From positions 345,293-409,292 of the forward strand of contig CAMTUG010000001.1 in NCBI GenBank assembly GCA_947084965.1: a DNA stretch of 64,000 nucleotides. Reading direction: 5' to 3'. Source of the stretch: an uncultured Parcubacteria group bacterium (GTDB lineage Bacteria; Patescibacteriota; Patescibacteriia; UBA9934; CAMTUG01). A program made the position numbers and the translations under genes. Position 1 is the first letter of the stretch; the number at the start of each line of letters is the position of its first letter. Shown piece after piece: positions 11,286 to 44,854 of the stretch. The notes below the pieces were generated by a model, which saw nothing but the letters and a program-made list of their open reading frames with translations, was not told the origin of the DNA and ran no database searches.

Positions 11286-11304
11286 TCAAGATATCCTCAA
11301 ACGG

Positions 11305-16581: not shown

Positions 16582-18312
16582 ATGTCCAACACCCCCAACT
16601 ACGACGCCAAGGTTCAAGCGATTCTCGACGCGACTCAGCCGGGGGAGAGGACGTGCGCGATTACGGGGGAGAAATGGGTTCAGGACGACGAAGAGCTTCG
16701 CTGGTACAAAGAGTTTAACGTCCCACCGTCGGCCCATGCGCCGTACACACGGATGCAGTGTTTTACATCGTTTTTTCGAAGCGGACAGTGGTGGTGGAAT
16801 AAACATCCGGTGACGGGAAAGCCCCTTATCTCGTCGGTGCACCCGGCGTGCGGTGTCCCTGTTCTACCGGACAAAGAATGGCATCAGAAAGATTTTCAGG
16901 AGGTGCAGTCTGAAGTCGATCTTTCGCGATCGTTCATTGATCAGATGTTTGAGCTGCGGAAACGCGTTCCGGCCGCAGCGCATGGAAATTATCAGGAGCC
17001 GGAGAATTCGATCGCCGTTGCTTCGTTTGGCGACGTCAATTCGTATTTTATGGTGGCGAGCAAAGGGAAGAATTGTTTCTTCAGCATCGTGGTGTTGAAC
17101 GGCGAGAATTCATCCGAGGTGTACAACAGCGAATCGATCACCGACAGCTATCACGTCATTCACTGCGAGCGGATGTTTAATTGTCAGTACGTGCGCGAGT
17201 CAAAGGATTGTCTCAACGCGCTTTTCTTGTTTGATTGTCGCAATTGCGAGTTTGTTTTCGGTGGATCGAATCTACGCAATAAAAAGTACGTGTGGTTCAA
17301 CGAACAATTAACGCAGGAAGAATGGGAACGTCGTCGAGCCGAAGTGAACACCGCTTCACGGTCGGCGATGCAACCACATCTCGAACGCTTCGAACAGATG
17401 ATTCAGGACGCGGTCTGGCCAGAAAATTTTAACATCAAATCAGAGAACTGCGTCGGTGAATATCTGACTAACTGTGAAGACAGTCGCTTTGTTTACTATG
17501 CCGACGGCGGCGCCCGTAATAACTACTGGATCGCTTGGTTAATTGGCAAGGCCGAACACAACGCCTTTGTCGCCGATCCGGCTAGTTCGCAAGATACGTA
17601 TTGCTCGACCGCGCTTTCGAGCTGTTTCAATACCAAGTTCTCTGTCTATTCCGTGCGCTGTAAAGATGTCGAATATTGTCTTGAGTGTTATGACTCGGAA
17701 TACTGCTTTGGATGCGTCGGCTTGCGTAAGAAGAGGTTCTGTATTTTGAACAAGCAGTACACCGAATCTGAGTATTGGCCAATGATCGACGCGATCAAGT
17801 GTGCGATGATCGATCGAGGGGAATATGCCGAAGGAGTTCCTCCGAAGTTTTCGCTCGGCTGGTTTCCAGAATCTGGCGCGGCCAAATATTATCAGTCGAC
17901 AGAAGAGTTTGGGCGCAGGATCGGTGCCAACGTATTTGATCCTGCATCTGAAGGAGCGTACGGCGACGAATTGATGACCGCCCGCGAGGTACGCGACGTT
18001 TCGCAAATCCCAGACGATGCCAAGGAATTGGATGGCTGGGCAGGTGTTGCTTTATTCGATCCGGAATTTAAGCGCCGGTATTCTTTGCTCGCGCCCGAAA
18101 TCGCTTTGTACCAAAAGCTGAAGATCGCTCCGCCGAACACACACTTCATTGATCGCGTTCATAAGTACATTCGCCTCGGCAACGCTCCAATCTTCCTCGA
18201 GGCCTCCTGTGCAAACTGCAGCAAGCAAGTGACGATCGCCAAAAATCCAACGTACACCAATCGCAAAATCTACTGCACCGAGTGCTACGTGAAGTACTTG
18301 GAAAGCAAATAA
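16582..18312 (+). CDS. Cys-rich paralog family protein, member 1 of 10 (uncharacterized family)
   Basis: MSNTPNYDAKVQAILDA…FDCRNCEFVFGGSNLRNKKYVWFNEQLTQEEWERRR…EYCLECYDSEYCFGCVGL…CANCSKQVTIAKNPTYTNRKIYCTECY. Start placed at the conserved MSNTP motif (tracked ORF begins upstream at 16462). Confidence 0.7.
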   Translation: MSNTPNYDAKVQAILDATQPGERTCAITGEKWVQDDEELRWYKEFNVPPSAHAPYTRMQCFTSFFRSGQWWWNKHPVTGKPLISSVHPACGVPVLPDKEWHQKDFQEVQSEVDLSRSFIDQMFELRKRVPAAAHGNYQEPENSIAVASFGDVNSYFMVASKGKNCFFSIVVLNGENSSEVYNSESITDSYHVIHCERMFNCQYVRESKDCLNALFLFDCRNCEFVFGGSNLRNKKYVWFNEQLTQEEWERRRAEVNTASRSAMQPHLERFEQMIQDAVWPENFNIKSENCVGEYLTNCEDSRFVYYADGGARNNYWIAWLIGKAEHNAFVADPASSQDTYCSTALSSCFNTKFSVYSVRCKDVEYCLECYDSEYCFGCVGLRKKRFCILNKQYTESEYWPMIDAIKCAMIDRGEYAEGVPPKFSLGWFPESGAAKYYQSTEEFGRRIGANVFDPASEGAYGDELMTAREVRDVSQIPDDAKELDGWAGVALFDPEFKRRYSLLAPEIALYQKLKIAPPNTHFIDRVHKYIRLGNAPIFLEASCANCSKQVTIAKNPTYTNRKIYCTECYVKYLESK

Positions 18313-18313
18313 T

Positions 18314-20044
18314 ATGTCCAACACCCCCAACTACGACGCCAAAGTCAGAGCGATTCTCGACGGGCTTACACCCGGCGAGCGTGTTTGTTCGCTCACAGGC
18401 GAGAAGTGGATGATGACCGAGGAAGAGATCGGTTGGTATAAAAAGTTTAATGTGCCACCGAGCACAGTTGCGCCGATGAATCGGGTTAAGCTGACCACTC
18501 TTTTTGGTACGGGATTTGGCTGGTGGTGGAATAAGCACGCCAAAACAGGGAAGCCGTTGTTGTCGTATGTGCATCCGGCCAACGGAATCAAAGTTCTGCC
18601 TGATCCAGAGTTTTTTGAACAGGACAATACGGACAAAGCGCGTGAGTACGACACAGAACAGAGTTTTTTTGATCAGATTCGTGCCCTTCAGCTTGAAGTT
18701 CCCTTTACGGCTTGGCGTTCGTTGACTGTGCCGGTCAATTCGATCGCTCTTTTGTCGCAAGGGGACGAGAACAGCTATTTCGTCACCGCCTGTAAATCCA
18801 AAAATTCATTCTACGCCTATTCGGTTGATGACATGGAAAACTCGGCCGAAGCGTTCGAATCCAAGTTTGTTGTTAATTCCTACAACGTTCTTAACTCGCA
18901 GCGCATTCATAACTGTAAGTTTGTGCGTCAGTCGTATGACTGCATGAACTGTAGTTTTGTTTTTGACTGTCGTAACTGCGAGTTTGTCTTTGGTGGCTCA
19001 AACCTGCGCAACAGAAAGTACGTATTTTTCAACGAGCAGTTGAGCAAAGAGGGCTGGGAAGCGCGCGTTGCCGCAATCGACCTCGGCAGCCGTCAGGTTC
19101 TCGAGGAATATATCGCCAAGTTCCAAGATCTGGTGGGACATAAAGCGGTCTGGCCAGAGAACTTCAATGAACAAGTCGAGGATTGCATCGGTGAATACTT
19201 GAATAAGTGCCGACAGTGTAAGTATCTGCTGGCAGGACATGGATCAGCCAATAACTACTACGGCGCGGTCTTTATCGACAACAGCGAAAATAATGCCTTC
19301 GTCGGCGGGGCGATTGGAAGCTTCGACAACATCTATTGTCATGCTCCGCTCAAGTCACGTGGTTGTAAGTACGTGCATTCAACGTACGAATCACAGAACA
19401 TGGAATACTGTATGCAGTGCTACAACTGTGAAAATTGTTTTGGGTGTGTTGGTCTGATCCGCAAGTCGTTCTGCATCTTCAATAAACAGTACACGCCAGA
19501 AGAGTATTGGAAGCGCGTCGATGAGTTAAAATGTGCCATGCTTGATCGCGGAGAGTACGGAGAATTCTTCCCAGCGAAGTTCTCCCCGAGCTACTGGGCC
19601 GTTTCTGTCGGGTTGCTCTATCAGATCGAAGATCCTGAAGCGATTAAGCTCGGAGCGCTCATGCTTGATCCGGAATCGGCCGGCGCGCTTGGGGAATTGC
19701 CGGTCGGGGCGGTGATGCGTTCATCTGATGATCTGCCAGATAACATCAAAGAGGTTGGTGAGGACTGGGGTGGTCAACCGATGATGGATCCGGTTGAAAA
19801 GCGTCGTTACGCCCTGTTAAAGCCCGAGATCGCCCTCTACAAGCAGTTAGGGGTCGCTGTGCGCGCTATGCACCCAATGAAGCGTCTTCGATCGATGGTT
19901 TTTGAAGCCAACTCGGGGAACTTCATCGACTCAACCTGCGCCAAGTGTGGCAAAGCAGTGACGGTAGCAACCAATAAAACATATCCCGACCGCGTCATCT
20001 ACTGCCGCGAGGATTACCTCAAATTCATCGAACAAAACGGCTAG
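18314..20044 (+). CDS. Cys-rich paralog family protein, member 2 of 10
   Basis: MSNTPNYDAKVRAILDG…. The terminal motif is CAKCGK…IYCREDY, with the fourth Cys replaced by Asp. Confidence 0.7.
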   Translation: MSNTPNYDAKVRAILDGLTPGERVCSLTGEKWMMTEEEIGWYKKFNVPPSTVAPMNRVKLTTLFGTGFGWWWNKHAKTGKPLLSYVHPANGIKVLPDPEFFEQDNTDKAREYDTEQSFFDQIRALQLEVPFTAWRSLTVPVNSIALLSQGDENSYFVTACKSKNSFYAYSVDDMENSAEAFESKFVVNSYNVLNSQRIHNCKFVRQSYDCMNCSFVFDCRNCEFVFGGSNLRNRKYVFFNEQLSKEGWEARVAAIDLGSRQVLEEYIAKFQDLVGHKAVWPENFNEQVEDCIGEYLNKCRQCKYLLAGHGSANNYYGAVFIDNSENNAFVGGAIGSFDNIYCHAPLKSRGCKYVHSTYESQNMEYCMQCYNCENCFGCVGLIRKSFCIFNKQYTPEEYWKRVDELKCAMLDRGEYGEFFPAKFSPSYWAVSVGLLYQIEDPEAIKLGALMLDPESAGALGELPVGAVMRSSDDLPDNIKEVGEDWGGQPMMDPVEKRRYALLKPEIALYKQLGVAVRAMHPMKRLRSMVFEANSGNFIDSTCAKCGKAVTVATNKTYPDRVIYCREDYLKFIEQNG

Positions 20045-20045
20045 T

Positions 20046-21785
20046 ATGAGTAACACCCCCAACTACGACGCCAAAGTCAAAGCGATTATCGACGGCATTC
20101 AGCCGGGCGCACGGGTGTGTTCGGTGCTCGGAGAGAAGTGGGAGATGACGGAGAAGGAGATCGATCTCTACCGTCGATTCAATATGCCGCCGCGGACGGT
20201 CGCAACGAACACACTGTGGAAACAGATGGCGTATTACGATGCCGGCTATCAGTTTTGGTGGAACAAGCATCCGGACACAGGAAAGCCTGTGCTTTCGTTT
20301 CATCATCCCGCTTCAGGTGTAAAAGTGCTTCCAGATGCAGAGTGGCACGCGCGAGACTTTAGCACGATCAACATCGATATCGATCCTTCGAAGCCATTCT
20401 TCGAGCAACTGCGTTCGTTGCAAGTTCAGGTTCCACTGCTTGCTACATTTAGCCGCGTCGAACCAGAAAACTCCATCACCTTGTTTTCGTTTGGTGATCG
20501 TAACAGTTACTTCACCTTTGCCTGTACGTCGGAGCGTACCTTTTTTGCTACCGGCGGATTTGAAGCGCAAGGGTCATCGCTGCTGTTCACCACGAATCAA
20601 ACGACGGACTGTCACCATGTTTTTAAATCTCAACGCATCTTCAAATGTCGTTATGTGCGTGAATCGCTTGACTGCATCGACAGCGCGTTCCTGTTCGATT
20701 GTCGTAACTGTCAGAACTGCTTCGGGGCGAGCAACAAGCGCAATCGGCAGTATGTCTTCATGAATGAGCAGTTGACGAAGGAAGAATACGAACAGCGCAT
20801 GAGTCAGATTGATTTAAGCAAGCGCAGTGAAGTGGAAACGTGGTCAAAGGCGTTTGATGAACTCTTAGCACGTGATGGTGTCTGGCCGGAAAACTTTAAT
20901 GTCAATTGTCAGGATTCGACCGGTGAATATCTCACGGGCGCGGTACGCTGTGATACTTGCTATGACTCGGCGGATGCGCCGAGCGATCAGTATCACACCT
21001 GTTGGAGTTATGGGGTCAATAACAATAATGCCTTCATGTGGGGCTCGGTCGATAGCACGGACGGGTACATGGTTTGTTCCTGTCCAAACTCAAACCAGAC
21101 GAAGTTTTCGTATCGCTCGTTCCGGTTAGATAACTGCGAGTACTGTTTCATGTGTGCGGACTTGCGCGATTGTTTCGGTTGCATCGGCTTAAAGAAAAAA
21201 CGGTTTTGTATTTTTAACAAGCAATACGAAGAGGAGGAGTATTGGCGTCTGGTCGACGAAATAAAATGTGCCATGCTCGAACGCGGGGAATATGGTCAGT
21301 ATTTTCCAACTTCGATGGCGACGACGTTCGTGCCGGAAGGCGGAGCAGTTGTGTACTGCGGGGCGACGCCAGAAGAGTTGCAAAAGCTCGGCGGGCAAAC
21401 GTTCGGGGCGGAAGACATGGATGCTACGGGTACGGGCCGGATCGACCCATCAAAAGCGCGTCGCCGTGAGGACATTCCAGATGCGATCGATGACCTTGGC
21501 GACGAATGGATCGGTGTACCGATCTACGATGAGGTGTCTGGACGGACGTTCGCCTTTTTAAAGCCAGAGGTCGAACATTATCGCCGCTTACGCATCGCTC
21601 CTCCGAATACGCACTTCATTCGTCGTATGCATGAGGTATCAAGTGCGGGACAGCGTGCCTGTTTGCAAAACGCTTCCTGTGCGCAGTGCAGCGCTACATT
21701 TATCGTAGCCAAGAATTTCCGCTATCCGGACCGCCGCATCTACTGCAAGGCGTGCTACACTGCCTTCATTGAAAAGAACGGCTAG
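20046..21785 (+). CDS. Cys-rich paralog family protein, member 3 of 10
   Basis: MSNTPNYDAKVKAIIDG…FDCRNCQNCFGASNKRN…CAQCSATFIVAKNFRYPDRRIYCKACY. Confidence 0.7.
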   Translation: MSNTPNYDAKVKAIIDGIQPGARVCSVLGEKWEMTEKEIDLYRRFNMPPRTVATNTLWKQMAYYDAGYQFWWNKHPDTGKPVLSFHHPASGVKVLPDAEWHARDFSTINIDIDPSKPFFEQLRSLQVQVPLLATFSRVEPENSITLFSFGDRNSYFTFACTSERTFFATGGFEAQGSSLLFTTNQTTDCHHVFKSQRIFKCRYVRESLDCIDSAFLFDCRNCQNCFGASNKRNRQYVFMNEQLTKEEYEQRMSQIDLSKRSEVETWSKAFDELLARDGVWPENFNVNCQDSTGEYLTGAVRCDTCYDSADAPSDQYHTCWSYGVNNNNAFMWGSVDSTDGYMVCSCPNSNQTKFSYRSFRLDNCEYCFMCADLRDCFGCIGLKKKRFCIFNKQYEEEEYWRLVDEIKCAMLERGEYGQYFPTSMATTFVPEGGAVVYCGATPEELQKLGGQTFGAEDMDATGTGRIDPSKARRREDIPDAIDDLGDEWIGVPIYDEVSGRTFAFLKPEVEHYRRLRIAPPNTHFIRRMHEVSSAGQRACLQNASCAQCSATFIVAKNFRYPDRRIYCKACYTAFIEKNG

Positions 21786-21786
21786 T

Positions 21787-23514
21787 ATGTCCAAAACTCC
21801 TCAGTACGAAGCAAGAGTAAAGGCAATTCTCGGCGGGCTCACGCCTGGCGAGCGGGTCTGTGCGATGACAGGGGAGAAGTGGATGATGGATGATGAGGAG
21901 ATCAGCTGGTATCGCAAATTTAACGTCCCACCGTCGCCGTTTTCGCCAAAGGCGCGTTTGTGGCACTTGGCTGCGAACGGCTGGAGCGCCTACCAGTGGT
22001 GGTGGAATAAGCATCCAGAAACTGGAGCGCCGGTGTTGTCCTATGTGCATCCAGCAAGTGGAATTAAGGTTTTGCCAGACAAGGAATGGTTTGCCAAAGA
22101 TTTCTCGAACGTGTTTTTAGAGCCAGCCGTGGAGCAGCCGTTTTTCGAACAATTCCGCACGCTTCAGGTACAGATTCCGGTCAACGCCACGCGCAATGTA
22201 AAGGAGCCTGAAAATTCAATCGCTACGGTCTCCGCGGGGGATGTAAATAGTTTTTTCGTCCAGGCTTCGCGCACCCGCGACTGCGTGTATACGATCGATT
22301 GCATGGATGCAGAAAATTGTGTGGAATGCAGTGGTTGTGAATCCATTCAGGAGTGTTATCGCGTCGGTCACTCTCAGCGGATGTTTCGTTGTGGATTTGC
22401 GAATGAGTGCATCGACTGTCAATCTTCGTCATTCATTTTTGATTGTCGCAATTGTGAGTTCTGCTTCGGCGCTTGCAATCAACGCAACAAAAAGTACTTG
22501 TGGTGGAATGAACAGTTGACCAAGGAAGAATGGGAAAAGCGCATCGCTGAGATTACACCGGGGAATCGTGGTTGGCTCGAGGCGCAGAAGGAACGCTATC
22601 TCAAGATGGTCGGATCAGAGGCGGTTTGGCCAGAGCATTTCAATTCGCAGAGCGAAGGTTCAATTGGCGAGTATTTGTTGCGTTGTGCTAATTGTCGTTA
22701 TAGCTTCTTTGGTCTTGATTCGCAGGATAATTACTACGCCTTCGGATTTTATAATGCGCGGAACAGCACGTTCTGTACTTCGATCGTCGGTGACAATAAT
22801 TATCAGTCGGGTACAAACGGCGAGTCTTCAAATACCAAGTTCTCGAATTCGCTCGTACGCTGTGATGACCTCGAGTACTCGTTCAATTGCTATGACTGCA
22901 CGCACTGTTTCGGCTGTGTCGGTTTGCGCCACAAAAAGTTTTGTATTTTGAACAAGCAATATACTGAAGCGGAGTACTGGAAAAAGGTGGATGAAATGAA
23001 GTGCGCCATGCTCGAACGAGGGGAGTATGGAAAACCAGTTCCTACAAAATATTCATTCTCTTACTTCCCGGAATCGGGCCCAGCGATGTATTTAGCGGCA
23101 AAACAGGAGGACTGGGATGCGGTCGGTATGCAGAAATTTGATGCCTCGGCTGAGGGGGCATTCGGTGCAGTGCGTGAAGGGGCACGTCCCGCCGCAGATG
23201 TGCCGGAGAATATTGATGATCTGGATCCTGCTGTTTGGTCAGGTGTGCCGATCGAGGACGCCGAAGAACATCGCCCGTTTACGCTTCTCGCCCCGGAAAT
23301 CGCTTTTTACAAAGAAAAGCGGATCGCCCCGCCCCGCACCCATTTTATCTCGCGAATGCGTGAGTTGATCTGGATGCAGAATACCGGCTTGTTTGAAAAG
23401 GCTACCTGTTCGGCCTGTAAGAAAGAGTTAACCGTCGCAGTGAATCGTACTTTCACAAAACGGAATCTTCACTGCTACGAATGCTACCTGAAGTATCTTT
23501 CACAAAGGGGATAG
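21787..23514 (+). CDS. Cys-rich paralog family protein, member 4 of 10
   Basis: MSKTPQYEARVKAILGG…FDCRNCEFCFGACNQRNKKYLWWNEQLTKEEWEKR…CSACKKELTVAVNRTFTKRNLHCYECY. Start at the conserved motif (tracked ORF begins at 21769). Confidence 0.7.
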   Translation: MSKTPQYEARVKAILGGLTPGERVCAMTGEKWMMDDEEISWYRKFNVPPSPFSPKARLWHLAANGWSAYQWWWNKHPETGAPVLSYVHPASGIKVLPDKEWFAKDFSNVFLEPAVEQPFFEQFRTLQVQIPVNATRNVKEPENSIATVSAGDVNSFFVQASRTRDCVYTIDCMDAENCVECSGCESIQECYRVGHSQRMFRCGFANECIDCQSSSFIFDCRNCEFCFGACNQRNKKYLWWNEQLTKEEWEKRIAEITPGNRGWLEAQKERYLKMVGSEAVWPEHFNSQSEGSIGEYLLRCANCRYSFFGLDSQDNYYAFGFYNARNSTFCTSIVGDNNYQSGTNGESSNTKFSNSLVRCDDLEYSFNCYDCTHCFGCVGLRHKKFCILNKQYTEAEYWKKVDEMKCAMLERGEYGKPVPTKYSFSYFPESGPAMYLAAKQEDWDAVGMQKFDASAEGAFGAVREGARPAADVPENIDDLDPAVWSGVPIEDAEEHRPFTLLAPEIAFYKEKRIAPPRTHFISRMRELIWMQNTGLFEKATCSACKKELTVAVNRTFTKRNLHCYECYLKYLSQRG

Positions 23515-23515
23515 T

Positions 23516-25249: not shown

Positions 25250-25250
25250 T

Positions 25251-26996
25251 ATGTCGCATACACCAAATTTTGACGCCAAGATCAACGCCATTCTCGATGC
25301 AATCCAAGCAGGCGAGCAAACCTGTGCATTGACTGGAGAGAAATGGATGCTGGATGAACTTGAATTAAACTTTTATCGCAAGTTTAGTTCTCCTCTATCT
25401 GTGTATTCTCCGCAAACGCGCATGAAGCTTCTCGGTGGGTTTCGGACGGGTTTTGAAATTTTTTGGAATAAGCATGCGAAGTCCGGGGAGCCGATCCTTA
25501 GTTATATTCACCCGGATAATCCAATTCCTGTTGTCACCGATGCGGATTGGCACGCCATGGATATCGGCGGCTTGCAGGAGTACCAACGCGAGATCGACCC
25601 TGCCCAACCATTTTTCGAGCAGTTTCGCAGCTTGGCACATGTGGTACCAATGGGCGCGCGCCGCGAATGGAAGAACGTCGTCAATACGGTCGGGGTTGGT
25701 ATGTGGGATATTGAAGATAGTTATCTTGTTTTTTCGACCGTTGGCGTGAAGCGCTGCATGTACACCTTTTACTGTCTTGAAGGATCAGAGGACATCACTC
25801 AGTCCGTGCATATCAATCACTCACAAAACTGCTTTGGATCAACGCAGATTACTCGTTGTCATTCATGTACTGTAGCGGTCATTAGCTTCGATTGCTTGAA
25901 GTGTGATTTCGTTTATGACTGTCGTAACTGTGAGTTTGTCTTTGGGGGAGCGAATTTGCGTAACAAAAAGTACGTCTGGTTCAACGAGCAATTGAGTAAG
26001 GACGAGTGGGAACGTCGTCGCGCGGCGGTCGATCTCTCCTGTCGTTCTGTGTTCAAGGAGTACCAACAGAAGTTCCTTCAACTTGTCGAACAGTCGGCCA
26101 CACCGGAACATTTTAATGTGAACGCGCCGGACTGTACGGGGGATTATCTTACGGACTGTGTGCGCTGCAAGGATTGCTATAGCTCGCAGCGGCTGACGGA
26201 TTGCGCCTATATGCATGGATCGACCGGGGCTGAAGGCAGTGCATTCTGTGTCGGGGCGTACCCAGCGACGCAGTCCTGGATGTGCAGCATGATCTCGAAT
26301 TCCAGCAATCTTAAATACTCCATGACCTGCGGGCGGAGCCAGAATCTCGAGTACTGCTTCAATTGTCATGATTGTGAAAACTGTTTCGGGTGTGACGGTC
26401 TGCGCAATCGTAAGTTTTGCATTGGGAACGTGCAGTACAGCGAGGACGAGTACTGGCGCCGTGTCGATGCGTTGAAGTGCGCCATGCTGGAACGGGGAGA
26501 ATACGGCCAGTTCTTTCCTCAGGATCTTTCGCCGACCGGCATGCAGTTTAGCCATTCGGCTATGTATTATCGGCTTTCAACCGCCGATGTGCAGGCTCTT
26601 GGGGCGCCGCTGTATGATCCGGATCAAGGCGTGGTGCTGGCTCCAAAGAAAACGGTTGAAGAACCTCCAAAAGATGCATCTGCGGCTCCAGACTGTTTGC
26701 GGGACGTTGATCCGGCCGTGTGGGTTAGTAAACCGTTCATGGACGAGCGGGTGCGTCGTCGCTGGAGTGTTGTGCCAAAAGAGTTCGCTTATTACACGGA
26801 TCGTCAGTTGCCATTTCCGGAAGAGCACTATTCTTCTCGGTTGCAAAAACAGATTCAGATGATGAACCAGCCGGCCTTTGAACAACTGCCGTGCGTGGTC
26901 TGTCAAAAGCCAGTGCAGGTCGGGCGCAACCCAGCATTTACAAAGCGTCGCGTGCATTGCATGAGTTGCTACCTGAAGTATTTGGAAGCACACTAG
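25251..26996 (+). CDS. Cys-rich paralog family protein, member 6 of 10
   Basis: MSHTPNFDAKINAILDA…YDCRNCEFVFGGANLRNKKYVWFNEQLSKDEWERRR…CVVCQKPVQVGRNPAFTKRRVHCMSCY. Start at the conserved motif (tracked ORF begins at 25143). Confidence 0.7.
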   Translation: MSHTPNFDAKINAILDAIQAGEQTCALTGEKWMLDELELNFYRKFSSPLSVYSPQTRMKLLGGFRTGFEIFWNKHAKSGEPILSYIHPDNPIPVVTDADWHAMDIGGLQEYQREIDPAQPFFEQFRSLAHVVPMGARREWKNVVNTVGVGMWDIEDSYLVFSTVGVKRCMYTFYCLEGSEDITQSVHINHSQNCFGSTQITRCHSCTVAVISFDCLKCDFVYDCRNCEFVFGGANLRNKKYVWFNEQLSKDEWERRRAAVDLSCRSVFKEYQQKFLQLVEQSATPEHFNVNAPDCTGDYLTDCVRCKDCYSSQRLTDCAYMHGSTGAEGSAFCVGAYPATQSWMCSMISNSSNLKYSMTCGRSQNLEYCFNCHDCENCFGCDGLRNRKFCIGNVQYSEDEYWRRVDALKCAMLERGEYGQFFPQDLSPTGMQFSHSAMYYRLSTADVQALGAPLYDPDQGVVLAPKKTVEEPPKDASAAPDCLRDVDPAVWVSKPFMDERVRRRWSVVPKEFAYYTDRQLPFPEEHYSSRLQKQIQMMNQPAFEQLPCVVCQKPVQVGRNPAFTKRRVHCMSCYLKYLEAH

Positions 26997-26997
26997 T

Positions 26998-28683
26998 ATG
27001 TCGCATACGCCAAACTTTGACGCCAAGATCAACGCTGTCATCGACGCTTTGCCTGCGGGTAAGGACGCGGAGATCTGTCGCAAGTTTCGTGTCCCGCCAA
27101 TTAAAATGGATCCAACCGAGCAGTTGGATCTTCTAACCGGATTTAACACCGGAATGGCTTTTTTTTGGAAGCCGCACATGAAGACCGGTGTGCCACTGCT
27201 TTCGGCAATTCACCCAGATACCCCGATTCCTGTCGTCACCGAAGAGGAGTGGGTGGAGATGGATGCAACGACATTTGGTCAAGAGATTGATCTGGCACAG
27301 CCGGTGTTTGATCAACTCTGGGGATTAGTGACACGTGTCCCGCATAATCCGACGCGTAACTTGAATTGCACACAATCGGTCGCGGTTGGAACGATTAATG
27401 CTAATGATTGTTATTGCGTTTCTGCCTCGTATATTGTGAACCGCTGTTTATATGGATACGCCATGCTCAACGGGGAAGACTGTATCGATTCCGGCAATGG
27501 GATGAACGTCGCCCGTTCGTATCAATCCGGCGGAAGTAACGACATCAGTGATTGCCAGTATGTTTATGAATCAAAAGGGTGTTTGAACTCTTCGTTCTTA
27601 TTTGATTGCTGGAACTGCGAATTTTGTTTCGGAGCCACGAACCAGCGTAACAAACGGTTTCTCTTTTTTAATGAACAGTTAGACGAGGCGGAGTACAAAA
27701 AACGCCTTGCCGAGATTGATCTCTCCGATGCCTCGGTCGCTAACGTGTACATTAAGCGCTTTATGGCCTTATGGAGGGCGGAAGGTGTCTGGCCAGAGGC
27801 GTTTGGCTACGGAAATACCGAGGCGGAAGGGGAACACGTCTTCGGTTGTGTGCGTTGTCAGGAATGTTTCTGGCAGAACATGTCTGTTGACTGTTATCGT
27901 TGTCGTCTGGGTGCGAGCAACAGTGGTTGTGCGTACACATCAGGGGCCGGTTCCCAGCAGGATAGTTACATGACGACCGGAGGTACGTTCGGATCAGGAA
28001 ACAAGTTTTGCGTTGGTGCAACCAAATGCATTGGCTGTGAGTATTGTTTTAATTGTCGTGAGTGCGAGAACTGCTTTGGATGCGTTGGATTACAGCACAA
28101 GAAGTTTTGTATTTTTAACAAACAGTATACGGAGGAAGAATACTGGCGTCGTTTGGATGAACTTAAGTGTCAGATGTTAGAAGCAGAAGAGTACGGGTCG
28201 TTTTTCCCAGCCAAGTTTTCACCGTGTGGATTGCAGTTTTCCGCCGGGGAGATTTATGTTGGATACAGCGCTGAGCGTCTGAAGCAGTACGGGGCGCCGT
28301 ATCTTGATCCAAAACGCGGGCAGGTCTTTGCCCCACATCCGCAGGAGCTACAGCCGATTGAAGCTGACAGCTTACCGCTTCGTTTAGATGATGTTGATTC
28401 ATCGCTGTTCGTGGGAAAAGCTATTCATGATCCAGAATGCGATCGTCTTTTTACGATTCTCCCCTCTGAATTTGAAACGTATAAGGCGAAGCGTTGGCCC
28501 CTACCACGAAGGCACTTTACGACGCGGCTGATTGAGCTCGTCCGTCGCTCTAACTCGCCTATGCCAAAAGATGCTGAATGCGCTGCGTGTCATGTGGCGA
28601 TCACTACCTATCGTAACTTCACCTTTCCAGAACGGACGGTCTATTGTCGTTCATGTTACTTGAAGTTTTTGGAGACGCGCTAA
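26998..28683 (+). CDS. Cys-rich paralog family protein, member 7 of 10 (N-terminally truncated variant)
   Basis: MSHTPNFDAKINAVIDALPAGKDAEICRKFRVPP…. Lacks the GERVCxxTGEKW…WYKKFNVPP segment found in the other members. The rest of the family signature is intact. Confidence 0.65.
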   Translation: MSHTPNFDAKINAVIDALPAGKDAEICRKFRVPPIKMDPTEQLDLLTGFNTGMAFFWKPHMKTGVPLLSAIHPDTPIPVVTEEEWVEMDATTFGQEIDLAQPVFDQLWGLVTRVPHNPTRNLNCTQSVAVGTINANDCYCVSASYIVNRCLYGYAMLNGEDCIDSGNGMNVARSYQSGGSNDISDCQYVYESKGCLNSSFLFDCWNCEFCFGATNQRNKRFLFFNEQLDEAEYKKRLAEIDLSDASVANVYIKRFMALWRAEGVWPEAFGYGNTEAEGEHVFGCVRCQECFWQNMSVDCYRCRLGASNSGCAYTSGAGSQQDSYMTTGGTFGSGNKFCVGATKCIGCEYCFNCRECENCFGCVGLQHKKFCIFNKQYTEEEYWRRLDELKCQMLEAEEYGSFFPAKFSPCGLQFSAGEIYVGYSAERLKQYGAPYLDPKRGQVFAPHPQELQPIEADSLPLRLDDVDSSLFVGKAIHDPECDRLFTILPSEFETYKAKRWPLPRRHFTTRLIELVRRSNSPMPKDAECAACHVAITTYRNFTFPERTVYCRSCYLKFLETR

Positions 28684-28684
28684 T

Positions 28685-30415
28685 ATGTCGCATACACCAA
28701 ATTTTGATAGCAAATTACAAGCTCTTCTCGACGCCACCACGCCGGGTGAGCGCGTTTGTCGCATCTCTGACGAACGCTGGCTGCTCACGCCAGAGGAGAT
28801 CGATCGCTGTCGCGCTTGGGGTGTGCCTCCAAGCCCATACGCCCCAACAATGCGCCTCAAGCTGCTCGCTGCCTCAGCTGCGGGAGTTGATCTGTGGTGG
28901 CGTCCGCACGCTTTGACCCAAAAACCGATCCTTTCTTCTAGTGATCCGGACGCCCTTGCGCCCGTGGTGACAGACGATGAATGGTATACGCTCGATGATG
29001 GTTCTGCTCACGGCTTTTCTGCCGACGCGGAGCGTCCATTTTTTGAACAGTATGTTAAACTGATCCCGCTCATTCCGATGCAGGCGAACTACTCAACCGG
29101 ATCAGAAAACTGCATTGGGGGTGGTTTTGAAAAGTGCGTTAACGGATTCATGATATTCGGGTCGTTCACTTTGCAGGATTGCTGGTACACCTTTCGCAGT
29201 AAATCGGATGAGCGCTGTATGGATGTGGCATTCGTCGCTTACTCGCAGGACTGTTTTTCTTGCTGCATGGCCGACCGTTTGCACGGATGCACGCAGGTCT
29301 TTGATTCTCTTGATTGTATCAACTCACAATTCCTCTTTGACGCCCGCGACTGCGAATCCTGCTTCTGCTCGACCAACCTGCGTCGCCGCAAGTATGTTTT
29401 CATGAACGAACAGCTGACCAAAGACGAATATGAACGCCGGATGAGCGAGATCGATCTCGGCTGCTCGTCTGTCTTTGCAAAGTGGAAAGAGATCTTTCAT
29501 CAACTGCTTGCGACACAAGCGGTCTGGCCAGAGGCCTTTAGTATCAACTCGCCTGGGTGCGTTGGGGATTATCTATTGAATTGCCTGGATAGCTCGGGGT
29601 GGTACATGGATGATGCCCGCGACGTGCGAGGAGGATGGATGGTCTTCGGACAGTCCAGCCATTCGGAGGCGATCGTTGTGGCTCGCTCGGCGCAAGATGC
29701 GTACATGTCCGCTGGCGTCCTCGGAAGTCAGAATGTGAAGTTCTCGCTGGTGTCCAAGGACTCGACGGCGCTTGAGTATTGCAATAACTGTCGCGATTGC
29801 GAGAACTGCTTTGGCTGTCATTCGCTCCGCAGTAAAAAGTTTCATATCTTTAACAAGCCGTACAGCGAAGAGGAGTATTGGAAGACCATTGATGCCCTGA
29901 AGTGCGCCATGCTCGATCGTGGCGAGTACGGCCAGTGGTTTCCGCCGGTTGTTAGCAACTGGCGACCAGAAACGGGGTTCGCCTCTATTGTTTCGCCGCT
30001 GACGGATGTGGAGATCGCGCGTCTTGGTCTTACACCGTTCGATCCGAAGTCGGCGATGCGCTTTGCTCCGGCGAACAATCAAGCGGTCGGTAACTTGGCG
30101 GAAGTGCCAGACTGCATCGATCAGGTTGGTGCTGAATGGGCGAACGTGCCGTTTGACGATGTTTCTCAAGCTCGCCGGTTCAATGTGAGCTCACGCGAAG
30201 TTGAATTTCGCAAAGAGCGTCGTTATCCGTTTCCAAAATCGCATTACCGCGCTCGGCTGACCGAGCTTGTACGCCAGATCAACGGACCGGAAACGGAAAG
30301 CCGCCCCTGCGCCAAATGCCAGAAGGCGATGACAGTGAATAAAAATCAGATGTTCCCAGACCGTACGATCTATTGCATGGACTGTTTTTACACGTTCATC
30401 GAAAGTCGTGGTTAA
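28685..30415 (+). CDS. Cys-rich paralog family protein, member 8 of 10
   Basis: MSHTPNFDSKLQALLDATTPGERVCRISDERW…CAKCQKAMTVNKNQMFPDRTIYCMDCF. Confidence 0.7.
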   Translation: MSHTPNFDSKLQALLDATTPGERVCRISDERWLLTPEEIDRCRAWGVPPSPYAPTMRLKLLAASAAGVDLWWRPHALTQKPILSSSDPDALAPVVTDDEWYTLDDGSAHGFSADAERPFFEQYVKLIPLIPMQANYSTGSENCIGGGFEKCVNGFMIFGSFTLQDCWYTFRSKSDERCMDVAFVAYSQDCFSCCMADRLHGCTQVFDSLDCINSQFLFDARDCESCFCSTNLRRRKYVFMNEQLTKDEYERRMSEIDLGCSSVFAKWKEIFHQLLATQAVWPEAFSINSPGCVGDYLLNCLDSSGWYMDDARDVRGGWMVFGQSSHSEAIVVARSAQDAYMSAGVLGSQNVKFSLVSKDSTALEYCNNCRDCENCFGCHSLRSKKFHIFNKPYSEEEYWKTIDALKCAMLDRGEYGQWFPPVVSNWRPETGFASIVSPLTDVEIARLGLTPFDPKSAMRFAPANNQAVGNLAEVPDCIDQVGAEWANVPFDDVSQARRFNVSSREVEFRKERRYPFPKSHYRARLTELVRQINGPETESRPCAKCQKAMTVNKNQMFPDRTIYCMDCFYTFIESRG

Positions 30416-30416
30416 T

Positions 30417-32144
30417 ATGTCCAACACGCCCAACTACAACGCCAAAGTGAAGGCGATTCTCGAGGCGACAACGCCTGGGGAGCGGGTTTGTGCGTTAACG
30501 GGTGAGAAATGGATGCTGACAGATGAAGAGATCGGCTGGCTCAAAAAATTCCAGGTTCCGCCACATCCGTGGGCGCCGATCATGCGTTTGAAACAGATGA
30601 TGGGATTTCCGACTGGAATCGCCATCTGGCGCAAGCCCCACGCAGACACAGGGGAGCCGATCTTATCGTTCGTTCACCCAGACAATCCGTTCAAGGTGAT
30701 TACGGACAAAGAATGGTTTGCTCGAGACTTTGCGCAATCAACCAAAGAACTTGATCCTGACCGGCCGGTGTTCCCGCAACTGCAGGCACTAGCACAAGCA
30801 ACGCCTGTGGGCGCCCTGCGCGACGATGGAAGTAATATCAATTGCGTCGGCGTAGATATTATTGACGGCCAAGATTGCTACATGTTTTTTGGTGGCTACG
30901 GTAACAAACGCAGCATGTACGGTGCGGTTAGTTACGAATCTGAAGACGCTTGCCTGCTCACCAACACCAAGGGTATTCAGCGCTCCTACATGATCAATGC
31001 CTGTTCGGACCTGCATGGTTGTCGTTACTGTTTTCAAAATGGCAAGTTGATAAACTGCACTTTTTGTTTCGATTGTGACAATCTCGAATTTTGTTTTGGC
31101 GCATCAAATCAAAGTCACAAAAAGTATCTCTTCTGGAATGAACAGTTAACGAAAGAAGAGTGGGAACGTCGTGTTAGTGAAGTCGATCTTTCCGATCGTG
31201 GGGTTTGGGAAGCGCAGGTCAGGCGGTTTCATCAAATGGTTTGCGAAGAGGCGTACTGGCGTGCGGATTTTAACCTTGAGCCGCTCGAGGATAGCACTGG
31301 GGAATACTTGTTAAATTCGACCCGCCTGCACGATTGTTACTGGCAGGATGGCGGCACGGATCTCTATCGTTCTTGGATCGGGGTGGAGTCGCGCGAAAGT
31401 GCCTTTGTCGTTTGGTCCGGTTGGGGAGATGCGGCTTACATGTGCACAGATATTTTGAAGCATCATAATATCAAAATGTGCATGCGCGTCTGGCGTTCAC
31501 AAAACTTGGAATACTGTATCGATTGTTTTGACTGCGAGGACTGTTTTGGTTGTGTGGGCCTGCAACGCAAATCGTTCTGTATCTATAACAAACAGTACAG
31601 CGAAGCCGACTATTGGCAGAGGGTTGATGCCCTGAAGTGTGCCATGCTGGACCGTGGGGAGTACGGACAGTTTTTCCCCGCGCAGTTTTCTCAGGTCGGT
31701 TATGCCTATTCCATGGGGGAGTTGTACTTGGGCTACACACCGGAAGAATTGTCCCTTTTTGGAGCGCTGGAGTTTGATTCAACAAAGGGGAACGTGCATA
31801 CGGTCGATGGCACGCTCAAGGTAACGGATTTGCCGGACCGCCTGATAGACACCATTCCGGAGCAGCACGTGGGCAAGCCGATCCTCGACACCGCTCTCGG
31901 GCGACCGTTTACGATCACACCGACAGAGTTCGCCTTTTATCAGTCGCACGGGCTTCCTCTCCCACGCGAACACTTTTTGTCGCGAATGACGACCCTCTTC
32001 CGTCACGCCAACGGCCCAATCCCTGAACAGGCTCCGTGCGCCAAGTGCGGCACAAACGTGACAACGTGGAAAAACGCGCTCTTCTCCGGTCGCCGTCGTG
32101 TACTATGCAGGCCGTGTTATTTGCAGTATTTTGAGACACGATAA
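30417..32144 (+). CDS. Cys-rich paralog family protein, member 9 of 10
   Basis: MSNTPNYNAKVKAILEATTPGERVCALTGEKWMLTDEEIGW…CAKCGTNVTTWKNALFSGRRRVLCRPCY. Start at the conserved motif (tracked ORF begins at 30408). Confidence 0.7.
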   Translation: MSNTPNYNAKVKAILEATTPGERVCALTGEKWMLTDEEIGWLKKFQVPPHPWAPIMRLKQMMGFPTGIAIWRKPHADTGEPILSFVHPDNPFKVITDKEWFARDFAQSTKELDPDRPVFPQLQALAQATPVGALRDDGSNINCVGVDIIDGQDCYMFFGGYGNKRSMYGAVSYESEDACLLTNTKGIQRSYMINACSDLHGCRYCFQNGKLINCTFCFDCDNLEFCFGASNQSHKKYLFWNEQLTKEEWERRVSEVDLSDRGVWEAQVRRFHQMVCEEAYWRADFNLEPLEDSTGEYLLNSTRLHDCYWQDGGTDLYRSWIGVESRESAFVVWSGWGDAAYMCTDILKHHNIKMCMRVWRSQNLEYCIDCFDCEDCFGCVGLQRKSFCIYNKQYSEADYWQRVDALKCAMLDRGEYGQFFPAQFSQVGYAYSMGELYLGYTPEELSLFGALEFDSTKGNVHTVDGTLKVTDLPDRLIDTIPEQHVGKPILDTALGRPFTITPTEFAFYQSHGLPLPREHFLSRMTTLFRHANGPIPEQAPCAKCGTNVTTWKNALFSGRRRVLCRPCYLQYFETR

Positions 32145-32146
32145 GT

Positions 32147-33883
32147 ATGTCCAATACCCCGAATTTTGATCTGAAAGTGAAAGCAATTCTCGACGCCACT
32201 ACGGCTGGCGAGCGTGTTGATCGTTTGACGGGAGAGGCGTGGATGTTAACGGACACGGAGATCGATTGGTGTAAGAAGTTCAATGTACCACCAGCGACGG
32301 TCAGTCCAGAAACGCGCTGGAAGCACCATGGCGTTTGGTATGTTGGGTATCAGTATTGGTACCAATCGCATCCAGAAACGAGGAAGCCGATTATCTGCAC
32401 CGTCCATCCGGCGACAGGAATCAAAGTACTTCCAGACAAAGAATGGTTTGAAAAAGATTTTCTCTCCCACGGCCGCGAGTACCAACTCGACCGTCCATTT
32501 TTTGAGCAGTGGCGCGAACTGCAGCTTGCTGTACCGATGCCAGCCAGTCGCAATCATGTTGAGCCGGTCAATTCAATCGCCTTTGTATCGCAAGGTGATG
32601 AGGATAGCTATTTTGTCGGTGCTTCGAAAACAAAACGCACCTATTATGCTCATGCCGCCATGGATGTTGAAGATTGCGCAGAGGTATATGAATCCTCGAA
32701 GTTGCAGGAGTGTTTTAATGTCGCCGACTCTTCGCGTTTGCATCGGTGTTCATTTGTACGTGCGAGCTACGATTGTCTGAACTCCAGCTTCTTGTTTGAC
32801 TGCCGCAACTGTGAATTCTGTTTTGGTGCGACCAACAAGCGCAACAAGAAGTATCTGTGGTGGAACGAACAGTTAACGAAGGAGGAGTGGGAAAAACGAC
32901 GAGCGGAAGTTGATCTTGGGTCGCGTGCTGTTGTCAGTGAGCAGATGCAAAGATTCCGTACGTTCGTGCGCGAACGGGCCGTTTGGCCAGAAAATTTTAA
33001 CGATCATGCGATCGACTCGACAGGAGAGTATTTGTTCAAAACAACGCGGGTGATGGACTCCTATCTTTGCGGCGAAGGAGCGATAGACCAGTACTTCTGC
33101 AATTTTAGTTTCGGTCAGTCTGAGAACAATGCCTTTACAGGCTATCCCGTGAACGGAAGCGATATGTATTCTTGCGCCTCGATTTCCGGTCGGCGTCAGA
33201 AGTTTTGTTTTTTGACGATTCGTTCGGAGAATATGGAGTACTGCATGCTCTGTTATAATTGCACGGACTGCTTCGGGTGCATCGGGCTTCAACGCAAGCA
33301 GTTCTGCATTTTCAATAAACAATACACAGAGGAAGAGTATTGGAAGCGTGTAGATGCGCTCAGGTGCACTATGCTTGATCGCGGCGAGTATGGAGAGTTT
33401 TATCCAGCCGGGTTTTCACCGAGCTATCCGGGGGATTCGGGGGCGATGTATTGGTTTGGAGCGACCAAGGAAGAGTTGAAAAAGATGGGAGTGATGGAAT
33501 TTGAACCGGAATCCCTGGGAGCGATCGGGGAGGAATTGGCGGATCCTTCTAAAATGAGAAACGTGAGTGAGCTCCCGGATTATGTACGTGATCTCACCGA
33601 CGATTGGATCGGTGTGCCGTTGTTTGATCCGGTGGCAAACCGTCGCTTCGCTATGATTCGTCCAGAAGTTGAGTTTTACCGTCGGATGAACGTCGCTCCG
33701 CCGACCAAGCATTTCACTGCTCGGTTAAAGGATCTGTGGGTGGAGGTTAATCAAGGGAGCTTTATGGAAACTACCTGCACTGCTTGCGGAAAAGCGTTAC
33801 GCGTTGCCAAGAACGCAGGACACCCCGAACGGAAGATCCTTTGTATTGAGGACTATCTCAAATTCATCGAGCAACACGGATAA
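32147..33883 (+). CDS. Cys-rich paralog family protein, member 10 of 10
   Basis: MSNTPNFDLKVKAILDATTAGERVDRLTGEAW…FDCRNCEFCFGATNKRNKKYLWWNEQLTKEEWEKRR…CTACGKALRVAKNAGHPERKILCIEDY, with Cys replaced by Asp. Confidence 0.7.
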   Translation: MSNTPNFDLKVKAILDATTAGERVDRLTGEAWMLTDTEIDWCKKFNVPPATVSPETRWKHHGVWYVGYQYWYQSHPETRKPIICTVHPATGIKVLPDKEWFEKDFLSHGREYQLDRPFFEQWRELQLAVPMPASRNHVEPVNSIAFVSQGDEDSYFVGASKTKRTYYAHAAMDVEDCAEVYESSKLQECFNVADSSRLHRCSFVRASYDCLNSSFLFDCRNCEFCFGATNKRNKKYLWWNEQLTKEEWEKRRAEVDLGSRAVVSEQMQRFRTFVRERAVWPENFNDHAIDSTGEYLFKTTRVMDSYLCGEGAIDQYFCNFSFGQSENNAFTGYPVNGSDMYSCASISGRRQKFCFLTIRSENMEYCMLCYNCTDCFGCIGLQRKQFCIFNKQYTEEEYWKRVDALRCTMLDRGEYGEFYPAGFSPSYPGDSGAMYWFGATKEELKKMGVMEFEPESLGAIGEELADPSKMRNVSELPDYVRDLTDDWIGVPLFDPVANRRFAMIRPEVEFYRRMNVAPPTKHFTARLKDLWVEVNQGSFMETTCTACGKALRVAKNAGHPERKILCIEDYLKFIEQHG

Positions 33884-38772: not shown

Positions 38773-38788
38773 CTTGAAGAAGATGTGC

Positions 38789-44471: not shown

Positions 44472-44472
44472 T

Positions 44473-44847: not shown

Positions 44848-44854
44848 TAGTCGT

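Follow-up and report, generated by a model that had tools for sequence, protein, structure and literature searches.

The window analysed here, a 64,000-nucleotide stretch of contig CAMTUG010000001.1 (assembly GCA_947084965.1, positions 345,293 to 409,292 of the forward strand) from an uncultured Parcubacteria group bacterium, ultra-small and of Uhrbacteria type, carries an array of ten co-directional paralogous genes (16582-33883, + strand) downstream of two genes for VirD4-like ATPases. All ten genes start with ATG, encode proteins of 561-581 amino acids (aa) and are free of internal stop codons (0/10). A preliminary description of this DNA, made from the letters alone, had listed them as intact genes and not pseudogenes; this proved correct, and the ten open reading frames (ORFs), their coordinates, the spacing of 1-2 bp, the alignability over the full length and the motifs quoted were all verified (Table 1). 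Pairwise identity of the ten proteins is 33-52% (mean 40%) in an end-to-end alignment with 53 invariant columns, far above chance, and no further copy of the family was detected in the window by tblastn and blastp. Consecutive genes are separated by 1 bp at eight of the nine junctions and by 2 bp at the last, the junctions reading TAATATG, TAGTATG or TAAGTATG, and the Shine-Dalgarno signal is weak or absent at the array genes. This near-gapless packing combined with little Shine-Dalgarno signal suggests that all ten genes are co-expressed and co-translated rather than switched. Member 7 has lost 15 residues near its N-terminus; because the same deletion is present in the orthologue from another genome, this copy is regarded as a stably kept variant rather than as a pseudogene. 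All ten proteins are acidic (pI 5.2-6.0, net charge −8 to −15), with a net positive charge over the C-terminal 40 residues. A hydropathy scan revealed neither a transmembrane (TM) segment nor a hydrophobic N-terminus in any of the ten members, in agreement with the earlier view that they have no signal peptide.

The array follows a module of three genes encoding a DUF8128 protein and the two ATPases, named here VirD4a and VirD4b. As a terminator-like hairpin precedes the DUF8128 gene, the transcription unit likely begins at this gene. All database homologues of its product, a 100%-identical entry included, carry PF26449; the gene is syntenic in at least 8 Uhrbacteria loci, and the protein shares 31% identity with the product of the equivalently placed gene of Kerfeldbacteria; ATPase fusions found elsewhere have an N-terminal half homologous to it. 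The DUF8128 protein is a putative membrane anchor for the ATPases. The ATG of VirD4a lies 1 bp past the DUF8128 stop codon (the program-called ORF begins at TTG 13065), and its product matches the Pfam profiles TrwB_AAD_bind, TraG-D_C and zf_Tbcl_2 and the NCBIfam profiles TraD, CD1115 and TIGR04272. The ATPase domain of VirD4a is followed by a CxxC-x17-CxxC finger, of the same type as the finger at the C-terminus of the array proteins, and then by a long disordered tail. Among proteins of solved structure, TrwB is closest to VirD4b in sequence (E 9e-5). Both ATPases thus display the domains of coupling proteins (TrwB_AAD_bind, T4SS-DNA_transf and TraG-D_C above threshold) with intact Walker motifs. 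The N-terminal TM domain of coupling proteins is absent, a separate single-pass DUF8128 protein being present instead, and no type IV secretion system (T4SS) or relaxase locus accompanies the pair: no gene for VirB4, VirB6 or a relaxase was found in the window, the rest of which consists of housekeeping genes, pilM and a pilin-like gene. In the C-terminal third of VirD4a (14500-15065), the Pro/Ala/Ser/Gly-rich tail contains the motif KKRRRRRRR and ends in DLFPW; VirD4b and its counterparts in Kerfeldbacteria and Peribacteria have acidic-hydrophobic ends (…ADDIIV, …DFEAPLV, …EEFEPPIV) resembling docking peptides.

A GC-rich hairpin occupies the 58-bp gap between VirD4b and member 1, the only sizeable gap of the gene run. 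It was not called as a canonical terminator, and because just three U are found downstream it is maybe not a full one; its possible roles are those of a weak terminator, of an attenuator or of an element of RNA processing or stability. The array had been described as one transcription unit. Its tight packing agrees with this proposal, but the array is not an isolated unit, with the hairpin before member 1 and an α/β-hydrolase gene 1 bp after member 10. This hydrolase may or may not be part of the system formed by the ATPases and the array.

Table 1. Features of the ATPase module, the array and the modelled member 2 (positions in the window)
Feature	Position	Strand	Size	Remarks
Terminator-like hairpin after secF	11298-11333	+		14-bp stem and T-run; strong
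DUF8128 protein	11360-13084	+	574 aa	one N-terminal TM helix (aa 20-43), large domain, Pro-rich tail
VirD4a	13086-15065	+		soluble VirD4/TraG-like ATPase; Walker A GKTGVGKS, Walker B YLYIDEF; no TM segment
VirD4b	15069-16523	+		soluble VirD4/TraG-like ATPase; both Walker motifs intact; 42-44% identity to VirD4a; no TM segment
GC-rich hairpin between VirD4b and member 1	16545-16567	+		9-bp stem, −21.5 kcal/mol, z −3.3; followed by UUUCAC
Member 1	16582-18312	+	576 aa	
Member 2 (the modelled copy)	18314-20044	+	576 aa	orthologues 87%, 81% and 63% identical in three other genomes
Member 2, N-terminal helix MSNTPNYDAKV..ILD	18314-18373	+	aa 1-20	specific to the Uhrbacteria sub-family; 68% identity among paralogues
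Member 2, degenerate zinc-finger pair ZnF1 and ZnF2	18374-18613	+	aa 21-100	C25 is the only remaining ancestral ligand
Member 2, β-solenoid I	18704-19039	+	aa 131-242	12-residue coils, Asn-Ser/Cys ladder, variable body, conserved FDCRNCEFCFG…NEQL cap
Member 2, β-solenoid II	19148-19489	+	aa 279-392	variable body, conserved EYCxxCYNCENCFGCVGL…FNKQY cap
Member 2, degenerate ZnF3	19775-19918	+	aa 488-535	ancestral Cys now D492
Member 2, zinc ribbon ZnF4 and terminal helix	19919-20041	+	aa 536-576	CxxC-x18-Cxx(C/D/H); zf_Tbcl_2-like, net positive
Member 3	20046-21785	+	579 aa	
Member 4	21787-23514	+	575 aa	
Member 5	23516-25249	+	577 aa	
Member 6	25251-26996	+	581 aa	
Member 7	26998-28683	+	561 aa	N-terminal hairpin deleted, likewise in its orthologue
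Member 8	28685-30415	+	576 aa	
Member 9	30417-32144	+	575 aa	
Member 10	32147-33883	+	578 aa	
α/β-hydrolase gene	33885-34529	+		starts 1 bp past member 10; syntenic 3′ of the array in several Uhrbacteria

No curated library covers the family. Pfam, NCBIfam and PADLOC profiles run on several members gave nothing above threshold, the sole recurring signal being a sub-threshold zf_Tbcl_2 ("probable treble-clef zinc finger") at the extreme C-terminus, and a profile search of all PDB sequences returned only a marginal S27e zinc-ribbon match; no solved structure covers the proteins. In these four resources there was no confident full-length match to a characterised enzyme family, in line with the preliminary description, which recognised no characterised family. 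Member 2 was modelled confidently with AlphaFold2 from an 87-sequence alignment (pLDDT 93.3, pTM 0.91). In the predicted structure, an N-terminal helix is followed by a small α/β region with two β-hairpins, a solenoid I with two helices, a solenoid II with a long helix, a mixed region and a C-terminal double hairpin with a helix. The solenoid architecture that had been suspected is thus seen in the model. The periodicity of about 20 residues given for it had to be revised: when the sequences are written in frames of 12, the repeat is a 12-residue coil in which a strand/turn unit of 6 residues occurs twice and Asn-[Ser/Cys] forms a ladder. Foldseek comparison of the model with the PDB gave LpxD, GlmU, LpxA and PglD as best matches, with TM-scores ≤0.13 and low probabilities. 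In addition to these scores and to the 12-residue coil length, the absence of any Hexapep match at E≤1 separates the solenoids from hexapeptide-repeat left-handed β-helices.

The sequences had been taken for a novel family. A word-indexed search identified at least 1,275 close relatives, all annotated as "hypothetical" and all from Candidatus Uhrbacteria or Patescibacteria, and a profile search of 1.84 billion cluster representatives gave 3,633 matches at E≤1e-3 and 1,401 at E≤1e-30. The distant members are proteins of about 550 aa spread over the candidate phyla radiation (CPR), in Kerfeld-, Lipton-, Peregrini-/Peri-, Falkow-, Magasanik-, Gracili-, Staskawicz- and Brennerbacteria; over positions 22-574 they align to the window-family profile with 290-340 bits and in the same domain order. 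Such canonical members are sometimes annotated as "zinc-ribbon domain containing protein" or "CxxC-x17-CxxC domain-containing protein", with PF13451 or PF23477, and are likewise found in arrays of up to 11 genes. They carry four intact zinc fingers, one pair at each terminus: the N-terminal pair consists of CxxC…FY…PxPxxCPxCR and then CxxC-x17-CxxC, and an equivalent pair is present at the C-terminus. HHalign comparisons within the CPR-wide alignment matched the N-terminal with the C-terminal finger pair (99.8%, E 3e-30) and solenoid I with solenoid II (99.9%, E 8e-35). As the finger pairs are homologous to each other and so are the solenoids, the architecture can be written A-B-B′-x-A′. A phage or mobile-element origin of the family was rejected, with one partial match only among 2.9 M viral contigs and a window context of chromosomal housekeeping genes.

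In the window sub-family, three of the four ancestral fingers are without ligands and only the last CxxC…CxxC ribbon keeps its set. The ligand changes in the Uhrbacteria branch, in canonical numbering, are C7 to T, C32 to S, C35 to T, C54 to H and C470 to D. Scores against PF23477 and TIGR04272 reach at most 19.8 bits for the window members, compared to a gathering cut-off of 27, whereas a Kerfeldbacteria family member reaches the Pfam gathering score (27.8 bits, two stretches). The canonical invariants (YNE, W434) are not conserved in the Uhrbacteria branch, which has gained a conserved 20-residue N-terminal helix instead. Window proteins therefore share homology and domain order with the canonical family, but neither its four intact zinc sites nor YNE/W434. 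When a canonical member was modelled with AlphaFold2 (pLDDT 83.8), its elements followed each other in the same order as in the model of member 2, and the fold would accordingly have been kept in spite of the ligand loss. Judged from these alignments, the window array is a derived, expanded Uhrbacteria-specific sub-family of a CPR-wide four-finger, double-solenoid family and not a new family, the very large parent family being listed in databases under hypothetical or zinc-ribbon proteins.

The dense CxxC motifs had been regarded as the sign of a metal-stabilised scaffold. To characterize these cysteines, substitution spectra of the Cys columns were taken from an alignment of 255 sequences. 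Most of the solenoid Cys columns, one per three residues, readily swap with Ser; Val, Leu, Ile, Ala and Gly are likewise found in their place. This free exchange with small or hydrophobic residues indicates that they are core-packing positions of a narrow solenoid and not metal ligands. Furthermore, the CxxCxxCxxCxxC run of solenoid II is specific for the sub-family, the CPR-wide consensus at this place being YCxxCxxSxxxFGC. The spectra and the consensus both speak for core packing, and the reading of the solenoid CxxC runs as metal clusters was discarded. The best conserved cap cysteines (C210/219/222/225 and C369/372/375/378) are occasionally replaced by aliphatic residues; four to five of them (C210/219/222/225, C369-378) might still be metal sites. 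The zinc-ribbon-like motif reported at the terminus was upheld by the same alignment: C542, C545 and C564 are conserved in 100%, 98% and 99% of the sequences, respectively, and position 567 is Cys in 78%, Asp in 17% and His in 2%. By its ligand pattern, C542/C545/C564/567 is a typical zinc site.

A link between the family and VirD4-like ATPases had been suspected from the window, and it was analyzed in other genomes. The 71 loci drawn from GTDB species representatives include 12 Uhrbacteria loci with the order SecDF-DUF8128-VirD4a-VirD4b-[family × n]-hydrolase-UppP, where the number n of family copies is between 1 and at least 7. As this order alone could be plain synteny, distant lineages were compared. 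In Kerfeldbacteria, a DUF8128-like gene and two VirD4 genes are followed by five family genes. In Peribacteria, a family gene, a gene for a DUF8128-VirD4 fusion and three family genes follow each other, with PrgI/TraC-like genes 3 kb upstream. Liptonbacteria and Staskawiczbacteria carry eight family genes each, adjoining a VirD4-like gene, and in a Magasanikbacteria locus three copies are present with no ATPase. In a closed 1.0-Mb chromosome, the single copy left in this context lies directly downstream of the ATPase pair. We also sampled metagenomes: 80 unselected loci were found with the canonical alignment, 39 of them at least 12 kb long. Two or more family copies (up to 11) were present in 31 of these 39 long loci and a VirD4-like gene in 20 (51%). 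The VirD4-like genes in these loci are mostly located less than 400 bp from a family gene (25/31) and on the same strand (30/31), often in the arrangement VirD4-array-VirD4. After the family itself, VirD4-like genes are by far the commonest neighbours (41 genes in 27 loci), followed by TrmB (10 loci), CutA1, DnaK, AspRS, PGK and DnaJ.

Genomes of Patescibacteria are about 1 Mb in size. A survey of 2,918 of them counted 5,713 homologues of type IV coupling proteins (T4CPs), about 2 each, only 148 of them near virB4, and exaptation was proposed (PMC12102498). With about two such homologues in a genome of this size, the chance of finding one in a locus of this kind is only a few percent. Combined, these results show that the suspected link extends beyond Uhrbacteria, to Kerfeld-, Peri-, Lipton- and Staskawiczbacteria and to half of the long metagenomic loci, and make a functional coupling of the family to VirD4-like ATPases probable. 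As to whether the family always occurs as arrays and beside such ATPases, arrays and adjacency are frequent, but many singletons and ATPase-free arrays exist. With regard to what is known of T4SS substrates, co-encoding with a T4CP was observed both here, with two VirD4/TraG-like genes, and across CPR classes; a profile scan of the members detected no known translocation-signal domain, and the net-positive C-terminal zinc ribbon is the only element of this sort.

Various other genes recur near family copies. Firstly, TrmB-family helix-turn-helix regulators (~250 aa) are present beside family genes in Uhrbacteria (11 genes in 7 loci, including L007, L008, L035, L044, L048 and L060) and in the CPR loci (11 genes in 10 loci), the loci concerned being L078 and 10 of the metagenome loci L079-L158. 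In Uhrbacteria, TrmB is often the divergent immediate neighbour of singleton copies, which suggests individual regulation of these copies. Secondly, the closed 1.0-Mb chromosome (OZ246408.1; L001/L020, 10001-11734) has a copy within a flippase-GT4-GT2-GT2-(171 aa)-FAMILY-Wzy_C cluster. Small AbiEii-like, toxin-antitoxin and NYN/PIN-like genes are found in or beside arrays of Kerfeldbacteria (L072/L073), Magasanikbacteria (L078) and in L022/L028/L041/L061. CutA1 (~100 aa) occurs in or beside arrays of Paceibacteria-type genomes (8 loci: L076, L077 and 6 metagenomic ones), and DnaK (8 loci) and DnaJ (6 loci) recur near arrays, as lineage synteny or as a functional association.

In the window itself, secD and secF lie upstream of the 11298 hairpin, and uppP, mnmA, lepA and recJ downstream of the hydrolase gene. 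In SecD (8396-10393, + strand), an inserted parvulin-type peptidyl-prolyl isomerase (Rotamase_3, aa 237-349) separates SecD_1st from the P1 head, an arrangement kept over the full length in related genomes (51-56% identity, aa 2-664). The LepA ORF (38774-41017, + strand) has about 150 residues before GTP_EFTU, either a real extension or the result of a TTG start called too far upstream. Type IV pilus genes are located at 43326-45346 (+ strand), one for PilM (43326-44471) and one for a pilin-like product that carries a methylation motif at its N-terminus (44801-45346). A third VirD4/TraG-like ATPase of 839 aa (47328-49847, + strand) is encoded between cysS and dnaX with no family gene adjoining; its N-terminal half is homologous to the DUF8128 protein, it is 33% identical over about 750 aa to a Peribacteria DUF8128-T4CP fusion, and it is flanked by two ORFs (46788-47324 and 49890-50489) that are both without a Pfam match.

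The dynamics of the array were assessed by comparison with the closest genome, in which the ATPases are 81-84% identical to those of the window. Five members have recognisable orthologues there (64-87% identity), in the order 10′-4′-5′-2′-3′-x-x, the last two copies being without counterpart. Between orthologues, the proportion of synonymous differences (pS) is 0.75-0.86, which is saturated, and the proportion of nonsynonymous differences (pN) is 0.10-0.23. Saturated synonymous sites together with a low pN indicate that the paralogues are old and that each of them is under strong purifying selection. The dN/dS analysis that had been proposed for the variable blocks thus revealed strong overall constraint, but synonymous saturation, even against the closest orthologues, blocks estimates of ω and of site-wise positive selection. 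Variable blocks alternating with conserved ones do exist, as had been noted: identity in four segments (136-210 and 301-360, which are the solenoid bodies, as well as 421-465 and 526-540) is 17-31% between paralogues but 60-80% between orthologues, and the N-terminal helix and both solenoid caps with their downstream helices are conserved in both comparisons. At identical residues, the fraction of positions with the same codon is 0.49 in the first 15 codons compared to 0.43 overall and is flat along the gene, which argues against gene conversion or a recombination "leader"; this candidate was abandoned, no synonymous-site excess being present at the 5′ ends. With old paralogues, orthologues under purifying selection and no sign of cassette recombination, the variable surface repertoire under diversifying selection envisaged by the preliminary description was not supported.

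The number of copies per assembly ranges from 2 to at least 27 (lower bounds). The minimum was found in the closed 1.0-Mb chromosome, with one copy by the ATPases and one in the glycan cluster, and the maximum of at least 27 copies represents about 4-5% of the genome in some Uhrbacteria. Signs of turnover are a family gene split by a 1.3-kb insertion (L008) and a frameshifted copy (L021). In conclusion, on the evidence of these comparisons, the repertoire is one of individually maintained specificities that evolves by birth and death.

We tentatively favour a reading in which the ten proteins form a diversified repertoire of clients or cargo of a membrane-tethered, coupling-protein-like ATPase, possibly exported, and we hold it as a possibility rather than as a firm proposal. 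The proteins would be made in the cytoplasm and would act as clients, either cargo or adaptors, of a complex of DUF8128, VirD4a and VirD4b. The N-terminal helix, the solenoid caps with the following helices and the basic C-terminal zinc ribbon could provide a conserved handle for the ATPase, the zinc-ribbon part being of the finger type also carried by VirD4a. The solenoid surfaces, paralogue-specific and conserved between orthologues, would give each copy a distinct binding specificity. The most likely outcome would then be ATP-driven delivery to the cell surface or into a partner or host cell of the episymbiont. With low confidence, this could be extended to a CPR-specific machine for protein deployment, made of DUF8128, paired soluble VirD4-like ATPases and the arrays, and independent of or loosely tied to a VirB4 channel; the solenoid paralogues might then be effectors or adhesins for host attachment or manipulation, and copy expansion might reflect host range.

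Several observations weigh against the client/cargo reading. Many arrays and singletons are located away from any VirD4-like gene (none within 10 kb), some copies lie next to TrmB regulators and one in a glycan-synthesis cluster. The ATPase genes and the array are set apart by a hairpin, the neighbourhood encodes no channel component, and just one TM helix is present in the DUF8128 anchor. By hydropathy scan the members are devoid of a signal peptide, and zinc-finger, Cys-rich proteins are typically intracellular. Finally, CPR genomes are compact and largely co-directional, and adjacency alone is thus weaker evidence than elsewhere in bacteria.

In an alternative that we find rather unlikely, the proteins would be intracellular nucleic-acid-handling factors whose fingers bind DNA or RNA and which act with ATPases of VirD4/FtsK/HerA type in translocation, uptake or a defence-like surveillance, the paralogues supplying specificities. 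T4CPs are related to DNA translocases, and the two ATPases also match HerA, DndH, MADS-type defence models and CedD/TraD; however, PADLOC gave no match for three members, and what the ATPases matched there were generic P-loop models only (mad8, DndH, HerA). Canonical members have four zf_Tbcl/CxxC-x17-CxxC fingers and VirD4a has one, but nucleic-acid binding by zf_Tbcl is itself unproven, and the Uhrbacteria branch, which has lost three of the four fingers, shows the greatest expansion. Genes for DHH/DHHA1 phosphoesterases are recurrent neighbours of arrays, recJ lies in the window, and toxin-antitoxin and AbiEii genes are interspersed in some arrays; the proteins themselves are acidic, carry no nuclease or effector domain and are absent from viral contigs apart from the one partial match.

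A second alternative, which we judge unlikely, is that the synteny is conserved without any mechanistic coupling and that the copies are an independent multi-copy set of intracellular binding or scaffold proteins, for instance TrmB-controlled stress or metabolic adaptors, accumulating where tandem duplication is tolerated. It would account for the numerous copies without a VirD4-like gene within 10 kb, for the TrmB regulators that adjoin copies, often divergently at singletons, for the recurrent housekeeping neighbours (DnaK, DnaJ, CutA1, PGK, AspRS) and for the hairpin between VirD4b and member 1. In contrast, the adjacency persists across CPR classes whose surroundings differ, as an upstream pair, a flanking pair or a fusion protein, and the 51% of long loci with an ATPase, mostly at less than 400 bp and on the same strand, compares to the few percent expected.

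It is very unlikely that the proteins are enzymes with diversified substrates, such as acyltransferases of the left-handed β-helix type or other glycan-modifying enzymes. The best Foldseek matches are of this kind, one copy lies in a flippase-GT4-GT2-GT2-…-Wzy cluster and canonical members have invariant polar residues (Y411, N412, E413, W434, D82, D162, D310), but the TM-scores and probabilities are low, the coils have 12 residues instead of 18, there is no match to Hexapep or another enzyme model of Pfam or NCBIfam, and the canonical candidate catalytic residues are not conserved in the ten window proteins. Least probable are antigenic or phase-variation cassettes, with one expressed copy exchanged with silent copies through a conserved 5′ leader, an idea suggested by the conserved N-terminus and block structure, the tandem organisation and the order that differs between related genomes, since the 5′ ends show no excess of synonymous conservation, the identity of paralogues is no higher than 33-52%, saturation of synonymous sites is seen even at 87%-identical orthologues (the copies being old and individually conserved), all ten genes are intact with a spacing that implies translational coupling, and no recombinase genes or repeats flank the array.

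CPR/Patescibacteria represent a large share of bacterial diversity and are ultra-small episymbionts with ~1-Mb genomes; to our knowledge, most of their host-interaction machinery is still to be discovered. The locus gives the orphan VirD4-like ATPases of Patescibacteria a concrete and conserved genomic partner with thousands of members, and the conserved adjacency points to an undescribed system of ATPase and clients. If the coupling is functional, the role of the orphan CPR T4CPs becomes directly testable and the family would be a prime candidate for determinants of episymbiosis specificity. Even if it is not, the family offers a clean case of zinc-finger loss with the fold kept, and of a 12-residue β-solenoid with a Cys/Ser ladder beyond antifreeze proteins. 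The sequences were already public as hypothetical proteins; the new points are the recognition of the architecture, of its arrays across the CPR, of its connection with orphan T4CP-like ATPases and of the loss of zinc sites in Uhrbacteria together with massive expansion. A full-text literature search found no description of the family, of DUF8128 or of the gene neighbourhood, an absence that is not proof as many subscription papers lie outside its coverage.

Known systems resemble the locus in part, but the window proteins fall into none of the characterised families compared, only into the CPR-wide four-finger, double-solenoid family. At the level of the fold, the nearest are the 12-residue solenoids of TmAFP type (Tenebrio molitor, 1ezg), other narrow β-solenoids being the ryegrass ice-binding protein (IBP, 3ult) and curli CsgA (8c50). 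Only one sub-domain is matched in each case, and the window proteins have no TCT ice-binding face, secretion signal or amyloid Q/N repeats; the 12-residue TCTxSxxCxxAx repeats, the conserved disulfide ladder and the secretion of TmAFP were not recovered, and obligatory disulfides are unlikely because the window solenoid Cys interchange with Ser/Val/Leu. The terminal modules of the family appear to belong to zf_Tbcl (PF13451), zf_Tbcl_2 (PF23477) and TIGR04272, models without a known function that cover less than 15% of the protein, and of these modules the window proteins keep the last finger only.

At the level of the locus, the nearest analogues are the Bartonella VirB/VirD4-bep system and the EssC loci. 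The Bartonella system is alike in having a coupling-protein gene followed by diverged tandem paralogues with common modules, a net-positive C-terminus and a lineage-variable copy number. The bep products are effectors of type IV secretion that have a BID domain in common and end in a basic tail, whereas the window family is without BID or FIC. Also unlike in Bartonella, virB channel genes are not found nearby, the ATPases are paired and without a TM segment of their own, with DUF8128 as an additional anchor, and the bacterium is a monoderm member of the CPR in which secretion is a proposal. The EssC loci of type VIIb secretion are similar in that an ATPase of the FtsK-HerA superfamily (EssC, FtsK/SpoIIIE-type) lies beside strain-variable arrays of substrates without signal peptides (WXG/LXG cassettes), in monoderms; the window ATPases are of VirD4/TraG type, there is no EssA, EssB or EsaA and no immunity gene, and the proposed clients are zinc-finger/β-solenoid proteins of 560-580 aa instead of helical hairpins. 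Finally, the VirB2 pilins of Patescibacteria are membrane proteins of ~100 aa encoded next to virB4, unrelated in sequence or fold to the ~575-aa soluble proteins encoded next to orphan T4CP-like ATPases, but their arrays have the same organization: they are CPR-specific, made of 2-11 tandem paralogues that are divergent but structurally conserved, and associated with T4SS-related genes (PMC12102498).

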